Shown here: in pieces, positions 5,395-61,620 of the stretch
How positions within the stretch are numbered: position 1 is the first letter of the stretch
Layout of the letters: every line of letters begins with the position of its first letter
DNA from: Eubacteriales bacterium
GTDB lineage: Bacteria > Bacillota > Clostridia > Oscillospirales > CAG-272
DNA length: 64,000 bases
Direction of reading: 5' to 3'
Assembly: GCA_045535095.1 (NCBI GenBank)
Contig: JAZSKY010000042.1
Coordinates: 23,668-87,667 of the forward strand
Program-made: the position numbers and the translations under genes
Notes under the pieces: generated by a model
Told to the model about the DNA's origin: nothing
Seen by the model: only the letters and a program-made list of their open reading frames with translations
The model's database searches: none

Positions 5395-7121
5395 GAGATA
5401 ATACCGTAAATGGCAAAAGCGGTGTTGTTTCAAACGGAAAGCTTATCGTTTATACAAACGGCCTAAAAATGTCCGAGATAAGAGGCTTTGGAAGCAGAGC
5501 GCTTCTCTCGGTGCTTCCCGTGCTGTCCGAGAGCTTTTATGACACCGAGGAAATATTTGATACAAACGCAAACAGCTATCACCAAAGCGTGTTTTCCAAA
5601 AGACATAAATTAACACAAAACTCTGAAAAGATAACAGAAATCTTCCAAAGCGCCCGTATTTGCGGCAAATTTTCGCAAGGCGGCGCTTTTGTTTGCGAGG
5701 TAGAGACGCTCAGTCCGATCGAGATAAATCTGGTCTCTCCGCCTTACGTGGAGACGGCGTTTTACCAAAATTACCGCATCGGATCAAGGGAAAAGAACGC
5801 CCTTCTTCTGAGAGAAGCGAGCGGCGAAAAGGGAATACTCGTCACCCTCTGCGGCGACGCCCGCTTTTCAGAAAACGGAGAGTCTGTGACACTCTTGCGC
5901 GGATTTTCAAGGATGATCTTCGCATTCGGCGAGGGCGAGGAGCGTATAAGATCGTCGCGTATCGCGATGCCTCCAAAATACTCGCCTGACGCGGTAAAAT
6001 ATACAAGCGACACACCTCTTTGCGACGAGCTTTTACATATTCTTCTCTCGCATCAGTCTGACTGCGGCGGAGTTTTGGCATCGAGAAACGAGACCCTGTT
6101 CAGAATGGATAGCGTGCGTATGATCGTGAACGCATTTCTGAAATACGGAAACACCGAAAACGCCCGCGCTCTGCTCGGATTTTTCTGCGAAAGATTTGCC
6201 TCTGACGGTGCGTTTTACCAGATCTATTCTGCCGAGACTCTTCGCGGAAAGCGTCATTTTTGCGACTCTTCTCTCGGCTGCGCAGGTCTTGCTTCGGCAA
6301 TGCTTGACTATGCCAAAATAAGTGGAGATAACTCACTTTTAAAGAAAAACATCAAGATGATGCGAAGTGCGCTCTACGCGCAGTTTGACGCACTCACAAA
6401 CGGAGTAATGCCGTTTTCGGGTGCGGAGACCGAGCTTTCAGACTCGCTCGTCAGTATAAGAAGCAGGGAATACGCATCGCTTGAAGCAACCCTCTCGTTT
6501 GCCGAGTCAGTTCTCGATTTTTGCGACTACTGTGAGGAAAATGGGATAAAGCTTCCACACGATAACGGAAGCGCCGCAAGACGCGGCAGAGCGATCCTTG
6601 ACGGCGTATCCGAGAATTTTATAAGAGACGGAGAGCCCTCTCTTTCCTCGATCGAAAGGAAAATAAGGCTTCCTCGCTTTTCGCACGGCGAGTGTGAGAT
6701 CTGCAGTAGAAAATTCTCACGTATATACTACGGAGAGCTTGAGCTTACAAGCGAAAATACGTACGCCTGTCCGCGATGCTACGCAGCCTTCACCCCCTCG
6801 GACGAAAGAGCGGATATTACGGAAGGCAACTCCTTTTCAACCCTTGCCGCCGCGATTCTGCTCTCAAGCGAGCGATTTGTAAAATCGTACGGAGCAAAAG
6901 AGTCGAAAAAGATGCTCGAGAGAGCGCTTCTCGTAAGGAAAAACGGAGGCGATATGACGAGCGTGCGCGCCGACTGTCTCCTTCTTCTTTCAGCAAGAAA
7001 ACTCGGACTTGATGCCGATTTTCTGGAAAGCGAAATAAAAAGTCAGGCTGAGTGCGGACGCCTTGCCGGAGAGTCGTTTGACACGAAAACCGTTGCGTCG
7101 CTCCTTCTTGCACTTGAATAA
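5391..7121 (+). CDS. Hypothetical 576-aa protein, possibly an (alpha/alpha)6 six-hairpin-like core with an inserted CxxC...CxxC zinc ribbon
   Basis: Long ORF whose ATG overlaps the upstream stop (ATGA). It contains the Cys pairs CEIC...CPRC. The fold assignment is only an impression from a helix-rich central region. Confidence 0.6.
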   Translation: MRDNTVNGKSGVVSNGKLIVYTNGLKMSEIRGFGSRALLSVLPVLSESFYDTEEIFDTNANSYHQSVFSKRHKLTQNSEKITEIFQSARICGKFSQGGAFVCEVETLSPIEINLVSPPYVETAFYQNYRIGSREKNALLLREASGEKGILVTLCGDARFSENGESVTLLRGFSRMIFAFGEGEERIRSSRIAMPPKYSPDAVKYTSDTPLCDELLHILLSHQSDCGGVLASRNETLFRMDSVRMIVNAFLKYGNTENARALLGFFCERFASDGAFYQIYSAETLRGKRHFCDSSLGCAGLASAMLDYAKISGDNSLLKKNIKMMRSALYAQFDALTNGVMPFSGAETELSDSLVSIRSREYASLEATLSFAESVLDFCDYCEENGIKLPHDNGSAARRGRAILDGVSENFIRDGEPSLSSIERKIRLPRFSHGECEICSRKFSRIYYGELELTSENTYACPRCYAAFTPSDERADITEGNSFSTLAAAILLSSERFVKSYGAKESKKMLERALLVRKNGGDMTSVRADCLLLLSARKLGLDADFLESEIKSQAECGRLAGESFDTKTVASLLLALE

Positions 7122-47953: not shown

Positions 47954-48153
47954 GCCTTTGTATTACAAAGGCACATCGGGCAAAGCCCATACCCCTAAAG
48001 ATGCACGAGCGTGTCCAAAGGCTCCCTCCGGGAGGGAACTGTCGCCGTAGGCGACTGAGGGAGAGCGCGTTACTATAAAGTCAATCTAAACTCTAAGTCA
48101 CGCAGGCTCCTTCCGTCACGGCTACGCCGTGCCACCTCCCTCTCGGAGGGAGG
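47954..48153. repeat. Cluster of GC-rich REP-like hairpins
   Basis: Hairpins at 47954-47972, 47978-47988, 48022-48038, 48041-48055, 48117-48131 and 48135-48153, read directly from the sequence. Confidence 0.75.
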
Positions 48154-48168
48154 CTTTTCGTTAGCTCC

Positions 48169-48197
48169 ATTATAACACAAATCGGCAGAGAAAGCAA
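48169..48197 (-). promoter_or_regulatory. Predicted sigma-A promoter on the minus strand
   Basis: On the minus strand: TTGCTT (48197-48192), a 17-nt spacer, then an extended -10 TGtTATAAT (-10 at 48174-48169). Confidence 0.6.
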
Positions 48198-48198
48198 G

Positions 48199-48364
48199 AG
48201 TGATATTCCGACTTCGTCGGAGTGATATTATTGCTATCGCAATAGTGATATTGAAGCCTTACGGCTTCAGTGATATTTTATTCGCCAAAAACTCGCGTAG
48301 CGAATATCACTCGGCGTCAGCCGAATATCACTGCGTAGCAATACAACTCGCCAGAGGCGAATAA
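48199..48364. repeat. Motif/hairpin array: AGTGATATT x4 direct and x2 inverted, interleaved with unrelated short hairpins
   Basis: Direct copies at 48199, 48221, 48244 and 48269. Inverted copies at 48303 and 48324. Hairpins at 48208-48220, 48230-48243, 48253-48268 and 48312-48323. Confidence 0.85.
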
Positions 48365-48368
48365 AACT

Positions 48369-48412
48369 GCGCAACTTCCTTACGAGAAGTTGCGCAAAGG
48401 AGTTGTTTTTTT
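48369..48412 (-). terminator. gpmI terminator, also the right copy of the inverted repeat
   Basis: 10-bp stem gcgcaacttc / gaagttgcgc (48369-48395). On the minus strand it is followed by agttttatt. Confidence 0.75.
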
Positions 48413-48417
48413 GCTTT

Positions 48418-50064
48418 TTACTTGATCTTTATCATCGAAGCGTCCCACATATCAGGAGCTTCATAACCGAGCATATTTACCGTAGTTGCGGCAACGTTGG
48501 AAAGTCCGTACGCGCCCTCGACTACCTCGTAAGCATCTGCGGTGAAGTTGTCGTATATTACGCAGGGAACGGGATTTAAGGTGTGGCTCGTCTTTGCCTT
48601 AGGCTTTCCGTCGGACGAGCATTTAACTTTGCCGGTCTTCTTGTCGGTCTCGTACATCTCGTCTGCGTTTCCGTGGTCTGCGGTAATGATAGCTGCGCCG
48701 CATACCTCGTCGATAACCGGAAGAAGTCTTGCGAGCTGAAGGTCAAGCGCCTCTACCGAGATCTTGGTAGCGTCCATATTTCCGGTGTGTCCAACCATAT
48801 CTCCGTTGGGGAAGTTTACACGAATATACTTGTACTTTTCGCTACGGATAAGCTCGATGAGCTTGTCGGTGATCTCAGCACACTTCATCCAAGGTCTCTG
48901 CTCAAAGGGAATAACGTCCGAGGGAATCTCGATAAAGGTCTCAAGCTCCTCGTCAAACTTTCCGCTTCTGTTTCCGTTCCAGAAATAAGTAACGTGTCCG
49001 TACTTCTGAGTCTCGGAGATAGCCGCCGAATAAATGCCGCATCCCACGAGATACTCGCTCATCGTGTTCGAGATCTCAGGGGGAGCAACGAGATAGTTCT
49101 TCGGAATGTGGAGGTCGCCGTCGTACTCAAGCATACCTGCATACATTACCTTAGGATATCTTACTCTGTCAAACTTGTCAAACTCCTCCGCGTCGAACGC
49201 CTTCGAGATCTCGATAGCGCGGTCGCCTCTGAAGTTGTAGAATATAACGCTGTCGCCGTCCTCAACAGTGCCGACAGGAGCGCCGTTTTCTGCGATAACG
49301 AAGGGGAGAATATCCTGGTCGATAGCGCCGGTTTCCTTTCTGAGGGTGGTGATAGCCTCCTCAGCCGATGCGAAAAATCTTCCGTTTCCGAGAACGTGGG
49401 TGTTCCAGCCGCGCTCTACCATAGACCAGTCGGACTCGTAGCGGTCCATCGTGATGCTCATTCTTCCGCCGCCCGATGCGATCTTTGCGTCGAATGTGCC
49501 GTCGTTAAGAGAAGCAAGGAATGCTTCAAAGGGGATAACGTAGTCAAGAGCCGAGGTCTCGCCAACGTCACGTCCGTCGAGAAGAATGTGGATTCGTACC
49601 TTGGAAAGTCCGTCCTCCTTCGCCTTCTCGATCATAGCCTTGAGGTGATCGATGTGCGAGTGAACGTTTCCGTCAGAGAAAAGACCGATAAAGTGAAGCG
49701 CTCCGCCGTTTTCCTTTGCGTTCTTGACGAGACTCTGCCAAGTATCGGAAGCGAACATCTTTCCGCTTTCGATAGAATTGGAAACGAGCTTTGCGCCCTG
49801 AGCGAATACCTGACCTGCGCCGAGTGCGTTGTGTCCAACCTCGGAGTTGCCCATATCGTCGTCAGAGGGGAGACCTACTGCCGTTCCGTGAGCCTTGAGC
49901 GAGAGAGTCGGGTACTTCGACATAAGCATATCGAGAGTGGGGGTGTTTGCCTTTTTAACCGCGTTTTCTTCACCGTCAGAGCCAAAGCCGATGCCGTCCA
50001 TAACGATAGTTACGAGCGGTCCCTTGACTCCCTGAAACTGTGCCGATTTTTTAAGTGATGCCAT
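48418..50064 (-). CDS. gpmI: 2,3-bisphosphoglycerate-independent phosphoglycerate mutase
   Basis: iPGM motifs are present (IVMDGIGFG, GNSEVGHNALGAG, ITADHGNA). The start was trimmed to ATG 50064, which has a GGAGGAA RBS. Confidence 0.92.
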   Translation of the reverse strand: MASLKKSAQFQGVKGPLVTIVMDGIGFGSDGEENAVKKANTPTLDMLMSKYPTLSLKAHGTAVGLPSDDDMGNSEVGHNALGAGQVFAQGAKLVSNSIESGKMFASDTWQSLVKNAKENGGALHFIGLFSDGNVHSHIDHLKAMIEKAKEDGLSKVRIHILLDGRDVGETSALDYVIPFEAFLASLNDGTFDAKIASGGGRMSITMDRYESDWSMVERGWNTHVLGNGRFFASAEEAITTLRKETGAIDQDILPFVIAENGAPVGTVEDGDSVIFYNFRGDRAIEISKAFDAEEFDKFDRVRYPKVMYAGMLEYDGDLHIPKNYLVAPPEISNTMSEYLVGCGIYSAAISETQKYGHVTYFWNGNRSGKFDEELETFIEIPSDVIPFEQRPWMKCAEITDKLIELIRSEKYKYIRVNFPNGDMVGHTGNMDATKISVEALDLQLARLLPVIDEVCGAAIITADHGNADEMYETDKKTGKVKCSSDGKPKAKTSHTLNPVPCVIYDNFTADAYEVVEGAYGLSNVAATTVNMLGYEAPDMWDASMIKIK

Positions 50065-50268
50065 AATTTGCGTTTCCTCCGTAGAATAAATCAAAACATT
50101 ACATAGTAGTATAACTCAAAAATGTGAATAAATCTTTAAGATAGAGCCGATTATCGCAAAAAAATGACACATTTTTTAAGTTTTATTAAAAATCCCTTGA
50201 AAAATCCTTATCTATGTGTTATTATATAATTCAATTCTTATGCGAAATAGCTTGAAAGGAATTAAACT

Positions 50269-55339: not shown

Positions 55340-55387
55340 AAAAACACCGTAGCTCAGGATTGTTCCTGAAGCTACGGTGTTTTTTGT
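55340..55387 (+). terminator. tRNA-His terminator
   Basis: Long stem aacaccgtagctcagga / tcctgaagctacggtgtt followed by a T-run. Confidence 0.85.
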
Positions 55388-57484: not shown

Positions 57485-58660
57485 ATGGAAAAGTTCACTG
57501 TAAAGACTGTATCTGACGTTGCCATTCCTAAAGATAAAGAATTTTTCGGATATCCGACTATGGTGCGTCTTAACGTAAGCGGAGAGCGAAACGGCACACT
57601 CCTTGCCACCTTTGCAAGATACGGAACGTGGAAGGGATATGACGTTTACGAAAGCTGTGACGACGGTGAGAGCTGGCATTATCTCTCAAGCGCCGTTGAC
57701 AATAGGGAGGATAAGATCCTTAACGCCATCTTCCAGCCCTGTCTCTTTGAAATTCCTAAGGATATGGGCAAATATAAGGCGGGAACTCTTATTCTCGGCG
57801 GCTGCACGAATTTCGTTAGGGACGGTATTGCAAAAACTGCCATCGTATTCTATATAAGCGAGGACAGCGGAAAGAGCTGGACTCAGTATATGGATCTTTG
57901 CTACGGAGGAACTGCTCCCGATAAGCTCGGAGTGTGGGAACCCTTCTTCATTTTCGACGAAAAGACCGACCGTCTCTATTGCTACTATTCGGACGAAAGT
58001 AACGAAGCAAACGATAAAAACGGCGCGGGCGCGCAGAAGCTCGTATTCAAGTATTCTACCGATATGAAAACTTGGGTCGGCAAGGATAATAAAACGGGTG
58101 TTACCGACGATCCCTTTATCGCTATAAACAGCTCGACCTATAATGCCCGCCCCGGAATGATCTCGATCGCAAAGATGGGTAACGGCGAATACTTTATGAC
58201 CTACGAGCTTTGCCTCTCGGGAGAAAATAACGGATGTCCTATATATTATAAGAAGACCACGAACCTTGCAGAGTGGACCGATACGGGAGATCACGGAAAG
58301 CCGATACAGACGGCAAACGGCTACACCTTCGGAAGTGCTCCTTGGTGTGCGTGGACTCCTGCGGGTGGTGAGTGTGGAACGCTTGTCGTTGTAGCGCACC
58401 ACAATAACAACAGTGTACGGCCTATCACCCTTGACGGAAACGGCAAGGTTTACGGAACCGATATGCTCATTTCTCTCGACTACGGCGAGACCTTTATCCC
58501 GTTCAGAAACCCCATTCCGTACTACACCTTTGAAAAGACCGCATATTCTCCCTTCGTAGGATTCTCTGCGGACGGAAATACTCTTTACTACCTTAACAAC
58601 CCTCCGGACAGTAAGCAGTCCTATCAGAGCGTTGTATTCAAGGCACTGAAGATCTGGTAA
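57485..58660 (+). CDS. BNR/Asp-box repeat protein, sialidase-like beta-propeller, no signal peptide
   Basis: Asp-boxes SCDDGESW, SEDSGKSW and STDMKTW. It starts 22 nt after the transketolase C-subunit gene. Confidence 0.7.
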   Translation: MEKFTVKTVSDVAIPKDKEFFGYPTMVRLNVSGERNGTLLATFARYGTWKGYDVYESCDDGESWHYLSSAVDNREDKILNAIFQPCLFEIPKDMGKYKAGTLILGGCTNFVRDGIAKTAIVFYISEDSGKSWTQYMDLCYGGTAPDKLGVWEPFFIFDEKTDRLYCYYSDESNEANDKNGAGAQKLVFKYSTDMKTWVGKDNKTGVTDDPFIAINSSTYNARPGMISIAKMGNGEYFMTYELCLSGENNGCPIYYKKTTNLAEWTDTGDHGKPIQTANGYTFGSAPWCAWTPAGGECGTLVVVAHHNNNSVRPITLDGNGKVYGTDMLISLDYGETFIPFRNPIPYYTFEKTAYSPFVGFSADGNTLYYLNNPPDSKQSYQSVVFKALKIW

Positions 58661-58667
58661 AATGAAT

Positions 58668-59078
58668 ATAAAAACACCGAAGCTTTAGCGTGATGTCCTT
58701 AACGGACAAATCACGCATCGAGATAAATCCCTTGAGGGATTTTCGATATGTTGCTAACGCAACTCGATATGCCTGCGGCTCGATATGTTTGCTACGCAAA
58801 CGAGGGATTTATCTCATATCGAATTGAAGCGAAGCGACAATATATCGAGTTCGAGCAAAGCGAGAACATATCGAGTCAACGAAGTTGACATATCGACAGA
58901 AAGAAAAACAAGAGCAAGAATAGAAGGATTTCTCCTTTTACTCTTGCTCTTTCTGTCGTTATAAGGGTTTGGGATTAGCCCGTATTTGCGCTTGACCGGT
59001 CAAATGCGATGCTCGCACTTAACGGCGGTTTTCAATTTCTCCGATAAGAGAACCACCCATTTGCTTCGGTGCTTTTAT
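58668..59078. repeat. 411-bp structured non-coding element with a 16-nt terminal inverted repeat and an internal TCGATATG/CATATCGA motif-hairpin array
   Basis: The terminal inverted repeat is ataaaaacaccgaagc (58668-58683) against the reverse complement of 59063-59078, with 15/16 matches. The motif occurs x3 direct and x4 inverted. A long hairpin lies at 58894-58958. Confidence 0.8.
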
Positions 59079-59079
59079 T

Positions 59080-59307
59080 TTAATGATGATAATCTCGCAT
59101 TTTGAAGGAGTATTTCCGAAATTTCAGCATATAAGATCTATATTGCTTTTCGGAGATCTTGCCCTCAGCGTAAAGCGCCTCCGTGCGCTCCTCGAGTCTT
59201 TTTCGCGAGTCGTGCGCGAGATCCTTGTAGTTGTTCATAAGATACTGTTCAATATCGTTTATGATCGAGTCAAGCTCGCGCTGTGCTTTGGATTTGAAAA
59301 ATAACAT
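59080..59307 (-). CDS. Hypothetical small helical protein
   Basis: 75 aa counted from ATG 59307, which lies 1 nt after the iorB stop (TAAGATG). Confidence 0.5.
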   Translation of the reverse strand: MLFFKSKAQRELDSIINDIEQYLMNNYKDLAHDSRKRLEERTEALYAEGKISEKQYRSYMLKFRKYSFKMRDYHH

Positions 59308-59308
59308 C

Positions 59309-59881
59309 TTACGCGTTGTATCCGAGATCAAACGCTTTCTTGTTCATCTCGATAAACTTGGGCGCAACCGTGTTCTCGATAGCGGCGATCCACTTTTCGT
59401 AAGGAATGTCGAAATATTTTGCAAGGCGTCCCATAAGAACGATGTTAACAGCCTTGGACGATCCTGCCTCGCTTGCAAGCGAGAGAGCATCGAGCGCGTC
59501 GCACTCAATACCAAGCTCTGCGAGCTTTTCAAGAGCGTCGTGCGGGTATTCTGCCGCGCCTGTGATAACGGGCATAGGATCGATCTCCTGAGTGTTTACG
59601 ATGATCTTTCCGCCGTCCTTTAAGTATGCAGCCCATCTTGCCGCCTCGATCTTTTCAAAGGAGACGATAACGTCCGCCTCTTTTTCGCAGATGATAGGCG
59701 AATATACCTTAGTTCCGAACTTTACGTACGTGATAACGCTTCCGCCTCTCTGGCTCATTCCGTGAACCTCGGAGACCTTTACGTCGTATCCCTCGTCAAC
59801 GAGCAGACGTCCGAGAAGCTTACTTGCGAGCAGCGATCCCTGACCGCCAACGCCCGAAATTATAATATTTTTAGTATTCAT
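59309..59881 (-). CDS. iorB: Indolepyruvate:ferredoxin oxidoreductase subunit beta
   Basis: 190 aa with the N-terminus IIISGVGGQGSLLASKLLG. Confidence 0.88.
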   Translation of the reverse strand: MNTKNIIISGVGGQGSLLASKLLGRLLVDEGYDVKVSEVHGMSQRGGSVITYVKFGTKVYSPIICEKEADVIVSFEKIEAARWAAYLKDGGKIIVNTQEIDPMPVITGAAEYPHDALEKLAELGIECDALDALSLASEAGSSKAVNIVLMGRLAKYFDIPYEKWIAAIENTVAPKFIEMNKKAFDLGYNA

Positions 59882-59904
59882 AACGATAACTCCTTTCTGA
59901 CTGC

Positions 59905-61620
59905 TCAGTTGATAGCGCCGAATGCGCAGAGCTGATTACATACTCCGCATCCTACGCAGAGAGTGCTGTCGATGACCGCTTTGCCGTTTTTCATGCTGAT
60001 AGCAGGGCATCCGAGACGCATACAAGCCTTGCAAGACTTGCACTTGTCACTGTCAACCGTAACGGGAGCCTTGGGCTTTACGTACTTGAGAAGAACGCAG
60101 GGACGTCTCGAAATGATTACCGAGGGCTCGTCTGCCGCAAGCTCTTCCTTGATAACCGTGTCGCACGCCTTGAGATCGTAAGGATCTACAACGCGCACGC
60201 GGTTGATACCGATAGAGCGGCAGAGCGCTTCAAGGTCTATCTTGCTTGCAGGATCGCCCTTGATGTTGTAACCGGTTGTGGGGTTCTGCTGATGACCGGT
60301 CATACCGGTTATCGAGTTATCAAGGATAATTACGGTCGAATTTGAGCCGTTGTAAGCGATGTTTATAAGTCCGGTCACGCCGGAGTGCATAAACGTAGAG
60401 TCACCGATTACAGCCACGCTTTTGCCCTCAAAGCCTGCCTTGTTAAATCCGTGGAGTCCCGAAACGGATGCGCCCATGCAAAGGGTGGAGTCGAGCGCGT
60501 TAAGGGGTGCCTGCGCGCCGAGAGTGTAGCATCCGATGTCACCGAGAACGGTAACCTTGTTTTTAGCGAGGGTGTAGAACATTCCTCTGTGAGGACAGCC
60601 TGCGCACATAACGGGCGGACGAACGGGGATAGTCGGAAGTCCCTCGGGGAGCTTCGACGTTTCCTTTCCGAGCGCCTTTGCAACTATGGTCTGCGAGAAT
60701 TCGCCGATAGGAGAGAAGAGTGACTTGCCCTCAACAGAGAGTCCGAGACACTTTACAAACTCCTCGATTACCGGATCAAGCTCCTCGATAACGATAAGGC
60801 GGTCAACCTTGGATGCAAAATCCTTTATCATTTTCGGAGGAAGAGGATTTACCATACCGAGCTTGAGTACGCTGCATGCGTCGCCGAATACCTCTTTTAC
60901 GTACTGATAGCAGGTTCCCGAGGTGATAATACCGATAGAGGTGTCGCCGTACTCAACGGTGTTGAGGGGCGAGGTCTCTGCATATTCTGCAAGCTTCTTG
61001 GTACGCTCCTCAACGAAGGGGTGGCGAAGCTTTGCGTAAGCGGGCATCATAATATATTTCGAGGGATTCTTCTCGTAAGCGGGAAGCGCTCTCTCGGCTC
61101 TTTCGCAAAGCTCGGTGATGCTCTGCGAGTGAGCGATTCTCGTGCACATTCTTATCATAACGGGGGTGTCGAACTGCTCGGAAATGTCAAAGGCGAGCTT
61201 TGCGTATTCCTTAGCCTCGGACGAATCCGCAGGCTCAAGCATAGGCACCTTGGACGCGATAGCGTATCTGCGCGAGTCCTGCTCGTTCTGTGAGGAGTGC
61301 ATACCGGGGTCGTCTGCAACGCAGATAACGAGACCGCCGTTTACACCGGTGTAGGAGAGGGTGAAGAGGGGGTCTGCGGCAACGTTCATACCAACGTGCT
61401 TCATAGCGCAAGCGGCACGGGCGCCTGCGAGAGATGCGCCGAACGCAGTCTCAAGAGCGACCTTTTCGTTGGGCGCCCATTCGCAGTATATCTCATCGTA
61501 TTTTGCAGCAAACTCGGTTATTTCGGTCGAGGGAGTGCCGGGGTAGCTCGAGATAACAGAGCAGGACGCTTCCCAAAGACCTCTTGCGAGGGCTTCGTTT
61601 CCAATTAAAAGTTTTTTCAT
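59905..61620 (-). CDS. iorA: Indolepyruvate:ferredoxin oxidoreductase subunit alpha
   Basis: 571 aa with a TPP-binding region (GDSTFMHSG) and a C-terminal 2x[4Fe-4S] motif (CKSCKAC...CVGCGVC). Confidence 0.9.
   Translation of the reverse strand: MKKLLIGNEALARGLWEASCSVISSYPGTPSTEITEFAAKYDEIYCEWAPNEKVALETAFGASLAGARAACAMKHVGMNVAADPLFTLSYTGVNGGLVICVADDPGMHSSQNEQDSRRYAIASKVPMLEPADSSEAKEYAKLAFDISEQFDTPVMIRMCTRIAHSQSITELCERAERALPAYEKNPSKYIMMPAYAKLRHPFVEERTKKLAEYAETSPLNTVEYGDTSIGIITSGTCYQYVKEVFGDACSVLKLGMVNPLPPKMIKDFASKVDRLIVIEELDPVIEEFVKCLGLSVEGKSLFSPIGEFSQTIVAKALGKETSKLPEGLPTIPVRPPVMCAGCPHRGMFYTLAKNKVTVLGDIGCYTLGAQAPLNALDSTLCMGASVSGLHGFNKAGFEGKSVAVIGDSTFMHSGVTGLINIAYNGSNSTVIILDNSITGMTGHQQNPTTGYNIKGDPASKIDLEALCRSIGINRVRVVDPYDLKACDTVIKEELAADEPSVIISRRPCVLLKYVKPKAPVTVDSDKCKSCKACMRLGCPAISMKNGKAVIDSTLCVGCGVCNQLCAFGAIN

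Follow-up and report, generated by a model that had tools for sequence, protein, structure and literature searches.

A 379-nt insert in a clostridial terminator loop is a copy of a widespread, Gut-1-like hairpin ladder

What fills the gap between two converging genes, and to whom do the inverted repeats at its ends belong? We examined a 64,000-nt stretch of an Eubacteriales genome (contig JAZSKY010000042.1; this whole stretch is called the window below), in which a gene for a BNR-repeat protein and a small open reading frame (ORF) linked to iorB and iorA end on either side of 411 nt of structured sequence. An earlier note, made from the sequence alone, had taken these 411 nt (58668–59078) for one element with terminal inverted repeats of its own and an internal ladder of motifs and hairpins. 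Here we show that a discrete insert of 379 nt, 58684–59062, lies in the loop of a terminator. Its core belongs to a large family of ladders that is widespread in gut Clostridia, structurally constrained and similar to the Gut-1 RNA, and near-identical copies without a gene lie at unrelated sites. Complete members of the family precede a predicted gene for a four-helix-bundle protein.

An insert in the loop of a shared terminator

The ends of the stop-to-stop gap, 58668–58683 (ATAAAAACACCGAAGC) and 59063–59078 (GCTTCGGTGCTTTTAT), match as inverted repeats at 15 of 16 positions, exactly as the earlier note had it, and the sole mismatch becomes a G·U pair on the minus strand. With a GC-rich stem, an A-run, a T-run and convergent genes on either side, the two flanks have the make-up of an intrinsic bidirectional terminator. 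An exact-sequence look-up of four window proteins returned no record; homologues of the BNR-repeat protein, by contrast, led to syntenic loci in four related genomes (L180, L178, L002 and L001), which have in common with the window the gene order transketolase, BNR genes, a 75-amino-acid (aa) ORF, iorB, iorA and a TrpR-like gene. All four are empty sites, with about 45–57 nt between the convergent stops that hold nothing but a bidirectional intrinsic terminator. In L180, the closest of the four, the hairpin is aaaaaacaccgaagc-AAAA-gcttcggtgttttt, its stem identical to the window arms and its loop 4 nt long; L178 has caccgaaac-TTGA-gtttcggtg, L002 has the L178 stem with the loop GAAAG, and L001 has taccgaaac-AGATTACT-gtttcggta.

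Because the hairpin is intact at the same site in four relatives that lack the insert, the arms are the halves of the host terminator and not the ends of the element, which is confined to 58684–59062. The terminator serves both the plus-strand BNR-repeat gene and the minus-strand operon of the small ORF, iorB and iorA. The features of the site are as follows:

58668–58683, unstranded: left half of the host bidirectional terminator (A-run and stem CACCGAAGC), outside the insert; the same A-run and stem stand at the empty sites.
59063–59078, unstranded: right-hand half of the same terminator (stem GCTTCGGTG and T-run), outside the insert; intact at the empty sites.
58684–59062, plus strand: inserted element of 379 nt, in place of the 4–8-nt terminator loop of the relatives, as delimited by the empty sites and by near-identical copies in other flanks (L159, L163, L162, L161, L089 and L044).

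The junctions read gaagc/TTTAGCG...CCCATTT/gcttc. TTT stands at both of them, as it also does in L159, and the loops of the relatives are AAAA, TTGA, GAAAG and AGATTACT. Thus, although its proposed ends have moved inwards, the description of a discrete, inserted and highly structured element stands, on the evidence of the empty sites and of the folding statistics given below, and a search for homologues and unoccupied sites, suggested at the time as a check, recovered both.

Around the insert, a comparable terminator lies downstream of tRNA-His (55340–55378). An extended −10-like box, TGgTAAAAT, at 58655–58663, overlaps the BNR stop codon just 5′ of the insert; a similar box (TGGTAAGAT) is present in the empty-site relative L002, so the box is probably a by-product of conserved C-terminal codons. 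The 75-aa ORF (59080–59307, minus strand), directly downstream of iorB, is kept in all syntenic relatives (L001, L002, L178 and L180) and matched no Pfam family; a D12 methyltransferase match in Pfam, obtained with a longer reading frame of 83 aa, fell below threshold and was taken as spurious. The BNR-repeat protein of the window (57485–58660) has 391 aa and its closest syntenic homologues have 583–589 aa, with further paralogues before them, differences which indicate that the BNR gene cluster varies in copy number and length among relatives.

Linkers, hairpins and a long-range helix in the ladder core

The insert is built from short linkers, repeated in direct and then in inverted orientation, with hairpins between them. 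We describe its core with the aid of a covariance model of the ladder (R1) and list its parts here:

58688–58716, plus strand: hairpin H0, GCGTGATGTCC-TTAAC-GGACAAATCACGC, preceding the ladder; compensatory changes in L123, L121, L096, L071, L161 and L160, and a hairpin at the same place after the promoter in gene-linked copies.
58718–58801, plus strand: first half of the ladder, with linkers at 58718 (TCGAGAT), 58743, 58764 and 58780 (TCGATAT); identified by R1, covariation and a Gut-1-like architecture.
58725–58742, 58750–58763, 58771–58779 and 58787–58801, plus strand: hairpins 1–4, in the first half.
58802–58815, plus strand: centre segment C (GAGGGATTTATCTC), in which 58803–58815 pairs with 58720–58732 (motif 1 and the left arm of hairpin 1).
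58816–58896, plus strand: second half of the ladder, with ATATCGA at 58816, 58842, 58868 and 58890; in complete copies directly 5′ of the predicted ribosome-binding site and ATG of the bundle gene.
58823–58841, 58849–58867 and 58875–58889, plus strand: hairpins 5–7, in the second half.
58894–58958, unstranded: H9, a long hairpin between A-rich and T-rich sequence, resembling an internal bidirectional terminator; it takes the place that the gene has in complete copies, and homologous hairpins with T-runs occur in L113, L096, L162 and L121.
58959–59062, minus strand: tail of the insert, with several hairpins, common only to L089 and L159; its fold is significant on the minus strand only.

Three copies of TCGATATG (58743, 58764 and 58780) and four of (C)ATATCGA (ending at 58822, 58848, 58874 and 58896) had been noted before and are present. 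A further forward copy, the degenerate TCGAGAT at 58718–58724, had been overlooked, so the array is 4 + 4 and not 3 + 4. The window contains 10 exact occurrences of TCGATATG where 2.9 are expected, 6 of the 10 inside the 150-nt ladder stretch, and not one of 100 shuffles reached 10. The plan was constant in the 27 full copies that we parsed: H0; M1-hp1-M2-hp2-M3-hp3-M4-hp4; C; M5′-hp5-M6′-hp6-M7′-hp7-M8′ (M, TCGATAT; M′, ATATCGA; hp, hairpin). In most ladder hairpins G opens and C closes the interval, and hairpins 5 and 6 contain a GA/GA internal loop around GCGAAGC or GCAAAGC.

The hairpins, unlike the linkers, are free in sequence and constrained in pairing. In an alignment of 21 sequences (A1), 97.3% of hairpin cells were paired and 22 of 28 hairpin pairs carried compensatory double changes; the covariation score was 0.624, compared with 0.207 in shuffles, none of 500 of which reached it, and at most 0.147 in slid controls. 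Perfect end-anchored stems of at least 4 bp occur in 66% of 330 distinct intervals from across the family and in 0.67% of shuffled intervals. These results bear out two claims of the earlier note, that the intervals are hairpins and that selection acts on structure, and they support a ladder of conserved linkers and variable hairpins under selection for structure. The linkers themselves are invariant within a type, so linker–linker pairs give no covariation signal. R1 matched the window core at 184.8 bits (E 2.4e-38), a score that is partly circular as the window copy is in the seed alignment; independent copies scored 100–186 bits. What defines the R1 family, namely 4 + 4 inverted linkers, seven covarying hairpins and pairing of the centre segment, is found in the window copy.

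A long-range helix competes with the first of these hairpins. Positions 58720–58732 are complementary to 58803–58815 at 13 of 13 positions, and their pairing competes with the local hairpin at 58725–58742. The family bears out the suggestion that the two are mutually exclusive alternatives: the helix of C with M1 positions 3–7 and the left arm of hp1 has 12–13 contiguous bp in 23 of 27 copies and 11 in one more, and it is retained in five sequence versions, including the window-type TCGAgAT with ATcTC. It is also visible in ladders with AGCTAAAT linkers and in one sequence of the Gut-1 seed. Since the helix excludes hp1, the alternative pairing is a conserved feature of the family.

The same comparison lent no support to a rod formed by pairing the direct with the inverted motifs. 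RNAalifold did pair direct with inverted linkers, but the motif-1 variant speaks against pairing of motif 1 with motif 8: this variant (TCGAgAT), the only informative one, is compensated in the centre segment (ATcTC) and not in the inverted motif. The remaining linker pairs of the rod never vary, and so provide no evidence.

The whole gap folds far better than shuffled sequence, with z of −9.4 on the plus strand and −14.9 on the minus strand; the advantage of the minus strand stems from the tail, H9 and the host stem, not from the ladder. For H9, already recognised as a compound hairpin, z is −5.7 on the plus and −7.9 on the minus strand, and for the tail it is −2.6 on the minus versus −0.2 on the plus strand. 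The better U-run of H9 is on the minus strand, so transcription of the ior operon probably ends at H9, and that of the BNR gene would continue through the ladder.

The ladder family, Gut-1 RNA and a four-helix-bundle gene

Scanning one genome per species for three copies of TCGATATG with gaps of 4–30, we found at least 118 loci, against about 3 expected by chance on our own base-frequency estimate. At least 76 are true ladders in which every interval is a distinct hairpin, and among the matches listed all 76 come from metagenome-assembled genomes of gut or rumen Clostridia (Oscillospiraceae, Acutalibacteraceae, Christensenellaceae, ‘Eubacteriales’ and Fimenecus), several genomes having more than one locus. 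The other loci, plain tandem repeats or coding repeats, served as a negative control. On viral contigs, 34 of 35 pattern matches were ordinary tandem repeats with identical spacers, which argues that the ladder family is not phage-borne; L151 is the only ‘viral’ contig of IMG/VR with true ladders. Blastn in distant mode found no match to the element in phage and plasmid collections, and blastn of the window against itself found no other copy with a TCGATAT-type linker.

Ladder genomes hold further linkers, CAATTCATG at L017 (1900–1973), L063 (1402–1449), L110 (4571–4644) and L151 (9594–9645), and a ladder with the linker TACATCATG lies at about 560–620 in L030. Solitary first halves are mostly upstream of genes and co-oriented with them. 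Many ladder copies are found at contig ends; ladders break metagenome assemblies, and array finders may take them for CRISPR-like arrays.

The likeness to Gut-1 (RF01706) is one of architecture. A gathering-threshold Rfam scan of the whole window gave nothing beyond two tRNAs, a permissive scan of 57500–60500 gave no Gut-1 match at E ≤ 10 and only chance microRNA-type matches on the long hairpin, and six other loci with TCGATAT ladders gave no Gut-1 match at E ≤ 1. However, a generic scan of the window for a 7-mer present three or more times with hairpin spacers found a second ladder at 48186–48369, adjoining the 3′ end of a minus-strand gene (48418–50094), with four copies of AGTGATATT followed by two of AATATCACT and two degenerate copies. 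Its halves score 47.5 and 34.5 bits against Gut-1, the gathering threshold of which is 50, and R1 and the second ladder match at 40.2 bits on the minus strand. The earlier statement that the element is no described non-coding RNA is therefore right in that Rfam is blind to it, but wrong in that each half resembles Gut-1 and a sister ladder scores 47.5 bits against that threshold.

Gut-1 has the same half-ladder architecture, with four linkers of 7–8 nt (GUGAAAU or GUGAUAU) around three short variable hairpins with CUUCG-type loops, and each half of 58718–58896 has this layout of four conserved linkers and three short variable hairpins. The flanks of the Gut-1 seed alignment contain an inverted second half (four AUAUCAC) downstream and the same long-range pairing, and Gut-1 likewise comes from gut metagenomes. 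The two differ in the linker, which is UCGAUAU in the window and not GUGAAAU or GUGAUAU, and in that the Rfam model spans one half only. On sequence and predicted pairing, the window core is two Gut-1-like modules in inverted orientation.

The sections of Weinberg et al. 2010 that describe Gut-1 (PMC2864571) rate it as certainly RNA and not cis-regulatory. These sections and the related part of the supplement report detection in human-gut sequences and in no sequenced organism, and are silent on an inverted half, a centre helix, a four-helix-bundle gene, insertion into terminators and function. A literature search found nothing that ties Gut-1, ladders and the bundle protein together, and searching with the motif sequence gave only primers or unrelated records. 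Gut-1 has stood in Rfam for more than 15 years without an organism, a partner or a function; the window locus and its relatives place its architecture in identifiable Clostridia genomes, and the motif as described proves to cover one half of a larger inverted ladder that has a covarying, putative switch helix.

Just upstream of the second ladder, at 48020–48170, is a run of GC-rich hairpins of the types ctccctc...gagggag and gtcgcc-gtag-gcgac. Look-alike GC-rich hairpins flank ladders in L011 (about 6590–6700) and L052 and may be another repeat family.

When 867 ladder-flanking ORFs were clustered, the sole recurrent neighbour was a protein of about 116–120 aa that matches PF05635 (23S rRNA intervening-sequence protein; E 2.5e-22) and TIGR02436 (four helix bundle protein; E 1.6e-25). 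In L025, L088, L164, L172 and L078 the last ATATCGA is followed within about 15–25 nt by a ribosome-binding site and ATG; L046 and L087 hold remnants. In about ten full ladders TATAAT or TGnTAnAAT stands 28–35 nt upstream of M1, followed by the H0 hairpin, and R1 scores full ladders at 140–186 bits in one orientation versus 45–82 bits in the other. Complete copies thus show a predicted order, in the orientation of the plus strand of the window, of promoter, H0 hairpin, ladder, ribosome-binding site and four-helix-bundle gene, an order that would make the ladder of complete copies a transcribed 5′ leader. The genes and their linkers group as follows, with clusters counted at 90% identity:

Clade A genes (L025, L088, L164/L172, L046, L087 and L174): linkers TCGATAT / ATATCGA; at least 3032 clusters.
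Clade B genes (L027, L182 and L191): linkers AGCTAAAT / ATTTAGCT; at least 7987 clusters.
Gene of L078 (about 60–64% identical to those of L088 and L025): linkers GCGATAT / ATATCGC.
Gene of L062 (44% identical): linkers GTATGTAAT / ATTACATAC.

Clade B was found in three independent contexts. By these sequence comparisons, linker sequence tracks protein clade. A conserved promoter-like box, ggcatctaaattgttcac-N6-tataat, precedes H0 in some cassettes (L078) and recurs after the ladder or the bundle gene, before the next host gene; such boxes lie directly 3′ of the ladder in L119, L077, L093, L075 and L108, and at about 1340–1375 in L182. The cassette seems to bring a replacement promoter.

The ladder is hence tied to an abundant family of small proteins, known as 23S rRNA intervening-sequence, four-helix-bundle or Avd-like proteins. 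The passage of PMC3936711 on this family cites the member Xcc0516 as an assembly of five four-helix bundles and mentions other members scattered in cas loci. The PF05635/Avd-like family is extremely abundant and has a known role only in diversity-generating retroelements.

Copies of the window type form a subfamily that lacks the gene. We found them by blastn and by a subfamily-specific metagenome scan (L089, L044, L113, L123, L121, L029, L096, L071 and L159–L163); their cores are 90–96% identical to that of the window, in at least nine different flanks, with substitutions mainly in loops. They have H0 in common, no gene and no promoter, and a long terminator-like hairpin at the gene position; in the insert tail of the window, tblastn found no remnant of the bundle gene. 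L029 (AAAAAGCGAGGA...TCCTCGCTTTTT), L121, L123 and L159 are each preceded by an A-run and one half of a stem and followed by the other half and a T-run, the stem sequences differing, and the left flanks of the remaining copies have an A-run and a GC-rich half stem at their end. Insertion into a terminator loop thus seems characteristic of the window-type subfamily, to which split-terminator flanks are confined, no flank complementarity having been found around promoter-type ladders. A miniature inverted-repeat transposable element (MITE), one of the alternatives first considered, would likewise have near-identical copies at unrelated loci; the terminal repeats noted earlier belong to the host. 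The window-type copies would be mobile in trans, and the window copy would be a non-autonomous or decayed cassette.

Ladders are themselves interrupted and rearranged. In L089 (about 175–225), L160 (about 1700–1760) and L161 (about 660–710) the loop of ladder hairpin 6 or 7 contains a nested mini-hairpin of about 45 nt (consensus ggggttccccaaaacgaagtatgagttttgggg), and in L172 a different insert, of about 70 nt, interrupts the centre segment; hairpin loops seem to be a recurrent place of insertion. In L164 (1307–1482 and 1855–1950), L168, L170 and L172 an identical first half-ladder stands before the second half and the bundle gene and again after the gene, where it precedes a Cys-rich ORF of 71–74 aa. 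Upstream, L172 differs both in its first half and in the gene (ArgRS), yet its second half and protein are the same. These repeats and swaps of half-ladders suggest recombination between ladders.

Possible roles of the ladder and likeness to known systems

How might such an insert work? Our preferred reading, which we consider about as likely to be right as wrong, is that 58684–59062 is a gene-less copy of a mobile, structure-encoded, Gut-1-like cassette lodged in a terminator loop, with linkers that are read by the bundle protein. That protein would recognise the repeated linkers on a single strand, probably of RNA, in its folded state; the hairpins would space the linkers out, and hairpin 1 and the long-range helix would be the two states of a switch. 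The window copy would have lost, or never have had, the gene, and its persistence in the 3′ region of the BNR gene would be that of a selfish element or a decoy. The split halves of the host terminator probably still pair with each other when the insert folds, and the insert has a bidirectional terminator hairpin of its own (58894–58958). Both the protein binding and the switch are what we infer from these patterns, and our leading guess for the function is that the bundle protein binds the linkers.

Several observations weigh against this reading. Tblastn found no four-helix-bundle gene in the 64-kb window, so that a partner in trans is hypothetical, and the co-variation of linker and protein could be simple co-inheritance of a linked cassette rather than binding. 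At the window junctions there is no clear target duplication, and near the insert there is no transposase or recombinase. That the window copy is transcribed is suggested by gene order alone. The stem pairs are nearly all Watson–Crick, with 3 G·T and 9 A·C among about 1,700, a poor fit to a model in which RNA is the only functional form, and H0 and the ladder fold equally well on both strands. Loops closed by G..A (GNA, GNRA and GNNA, often GCGAAGC) occur in 85 of 168 hairpins on the ATATCGA strand versus 1 of 168 on the TCGATAT strand, an asymmetry that makes the first half of the ladder look optimised on the strand opposite to the transcribed one. An attempt to assign the strand from G·U pairs failed for the ladder, which has essentially none.

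The scarcity of G·U and the strand-asymmetric loops keep a mechanism based on single-stranded DNA (ssDNA) as the main rival, one that we think improbable but that stands ahead of the other alternatives. The functional form would be hairpins extruded on DNA strands that replication or transfer leaves exposed, and a strand-specific enzyme would recognise or recombine the linker–hairpin units, much as in the case of integron attC sites, of the ends of insertion sequences of the IS200/IS605 type or of repetitive extragenic palindromic (REP) sequences and their tyrosine transposases (RAYT). Such a mechanism would account for insertion into hairpin loops, the element lying in a hairpin loop of 4 nt, and for the small hairpins nested in ladder-hairpin loops (L089, L160 and L161). 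It also agrees with essentially perfect Watson–Crick stems in which G·U is not enriched; with GNA and GNRA loops found solely on the ATATCGA strand, among them GCGAAGC, an exceptionally stable DNA mini-hairpin; with halves optimised on opposite strands and a core that folds equally on both; and with a first half that is repeated on either side of the bundle gene (L164, L168, L170 and L172) and swapped between L164 and L172. However, no HUH or tyrosine recombinase or transposase recurs beside the ladders, and no conserved cleavage tetranucleotide could be defined although subterminal hairpins are present. Moreover, the consistent order of promoter, ladder, ribosome-binding site and gene argues that, whatever its other roles, the ladder is an mRNA leader too, and the section on Gut-1 in Weinberg et al. 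(PMC2864571) rates that motif as certainly RNA.

A trans-acting antisense RNA, a dead remnant and an array of duplex-DNA sites are each less likely than the ssDNA mechanism. The first of these, which strikes us as quite unlikely, would be a stand-alone regulatory RNA of the Gut-1 class, either a small RNA or derived from a 3′ untranslated region, with ATATCGA linkers that pair in trans with the TCGATAT of solitary half-ladders in 5′ leaders; its own first half would be an internal antisense lock. About 16 solitary first halves versus 5 are upstream of and co-oriented with genes, and in L015, L008, L087, L164 and L174 a ribosome-binding site comes directly after hairpin 4. The linkers of the two halves are exact complements, the loop types are complementary as well (UNC versus GNA), and Rfam classes Gut-1 as a small RNA. 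Yet the linkers are invariant within a type, leaving no linker–linker covariation to read, and the motif-1 variant is compensated in the centre segment and not in an inverted linker. Nor does the window copy have a promoter of its own: the box at 58655–58663 overlaps the BNR stop and is also found in an empty-site relative.

We give slightly less credence again to the idea that the window copy of the cassette is dead, a decaying remnant without function that has survived only because it does no harm in a terminator loop. The copy has neither a gene nor its own promoter, motif 1 departs from the 8-nt consensus, as does the second inverted copy, which has T in place of C before it, and the host needs the flanking terminator only. 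The window-type subfamily is nonetheless kept at 90–96% identity over at least nine loci with substitutions mainly in loops, and all seven parsed window-type copies with the altered motif 1 have the compensating change in the centre segment, which points to continuing selection on structure. Finally, a protein-binding array on double-stranded DNA, such as iterons, centromere-like sites or transposon ends, is very improbable: it would explain why one 7-bp site occurs eight times, in two inverted blocks (4 + 4), and why the linker is conserved across distant Clostridia, with the hairpins incidental, but the spacing of 16–27 bp within one element differs among copies without helical phasing, the intervals are strongly selected for a self-complementarity of free sequence that duplex sites do not require, strand-asymmetric loops make no sense for duplex DNA, and no replication or partition genes are nearby.

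Of the systems to which the ladder may be compared, a CRISPR array does not fit, since the repeats are 7–8 nt rather than about 23–50 nt, the spacers are hairpins of 8–19 nt rather than unique non-palindromic sequences and no cas genes are nearby. Closer are REP sequences and bacterial interspersed mosaic elements (BIMEs), BOX-type repeats and MITEs, which are likewise multi-copy, intergenic and highly structured, often lie at gene 3′ ends or terminators, are modular, with hairpins and linkers reshuffled among copies, and break assemblies. In REP/BIME, however, the palindrome, with its GTAG-type foot, is conserved and the linkers vary, whereas the ladder reverses this, its linker being invariant and its hairpin sequence free. 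With MITEs the window element has in common near-identical copies at unrelated sites (at least nine of the window type); it differs in that it lacks its own terminal inverted repeats, a clear target duplication and a transposase partner. Non-autonomous elements of the IS200/IS605 type have subterminal hairpins, insert 3′ of a fixed tetranucleotide and have a TnpA/TnpB partner; in the window element hairpins lie near both ends (58688–58716 and about 59025–59058), the last letters of the left flanks are T, TT or TTT, and among the ladder neighbours no transposase recurs.

Avd, the accessory protein of diversity-generating retroelements, is a small, basic, pentameric four-helix-bundle protein that acts with structured RNA, and it belongs to the same superfamily as the bundle protein. 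The ladders have no reverse transcriptase nearby, and neither a template nor a variable repeat. PF05635 and Avd have been linked (PMC10053308). Whether the bundle protein binds the linkers on RNA or on ssDNA and mediates the spread of the ladders has become a testable question.

The intervening sequences of 23S rRNA that carry an S23p ORF offer another comparison. They too are inserts of about 400 nt in a hairpin (helix 45) with complementary ends that form a stem, they are linked to the PF05635 protein family, and their sporadic distribution has been read as horizontal spread; that of Coxiella burnetii, 428 nt long, occupies helix 45 and has a closing stem of 28 bp; RNase III cleaves it, and it is regarded as selfish (PMC4990558). 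The window element differs in that it lies in the terminator of protein genes and not in helix 25 or 45, the window containing no rRNA; it has no ORF, although relatives of the ladder precede a gene of the S23p family; and its closing stem is the host terminator. A broader proposal, which we hold to be doubtful, is that cassettes of ladder and bundle gene are an unrecognised class of mobile elements that home into hairpin loops, those of terminators, of ladder hairpins and, by extension, of 23S helices 25 and 45, where they would give rise to intervening sequences, and that their linkers are recognised on a folded single strand by a pentameric PF05635 protein. If true, this would provide a function for the orphan Gut-1 RNA (unexplained since 2010) and for the 23S rRNA intervening-sequence protein family (unexplained since 1993), and would also explain the spread of rRNA-type inserts. 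The window offers a clean pair of filled and empty sites for insertion into a 4-nt terminator loop, a behaviour reminiscent of the rRNA intervening sequences.

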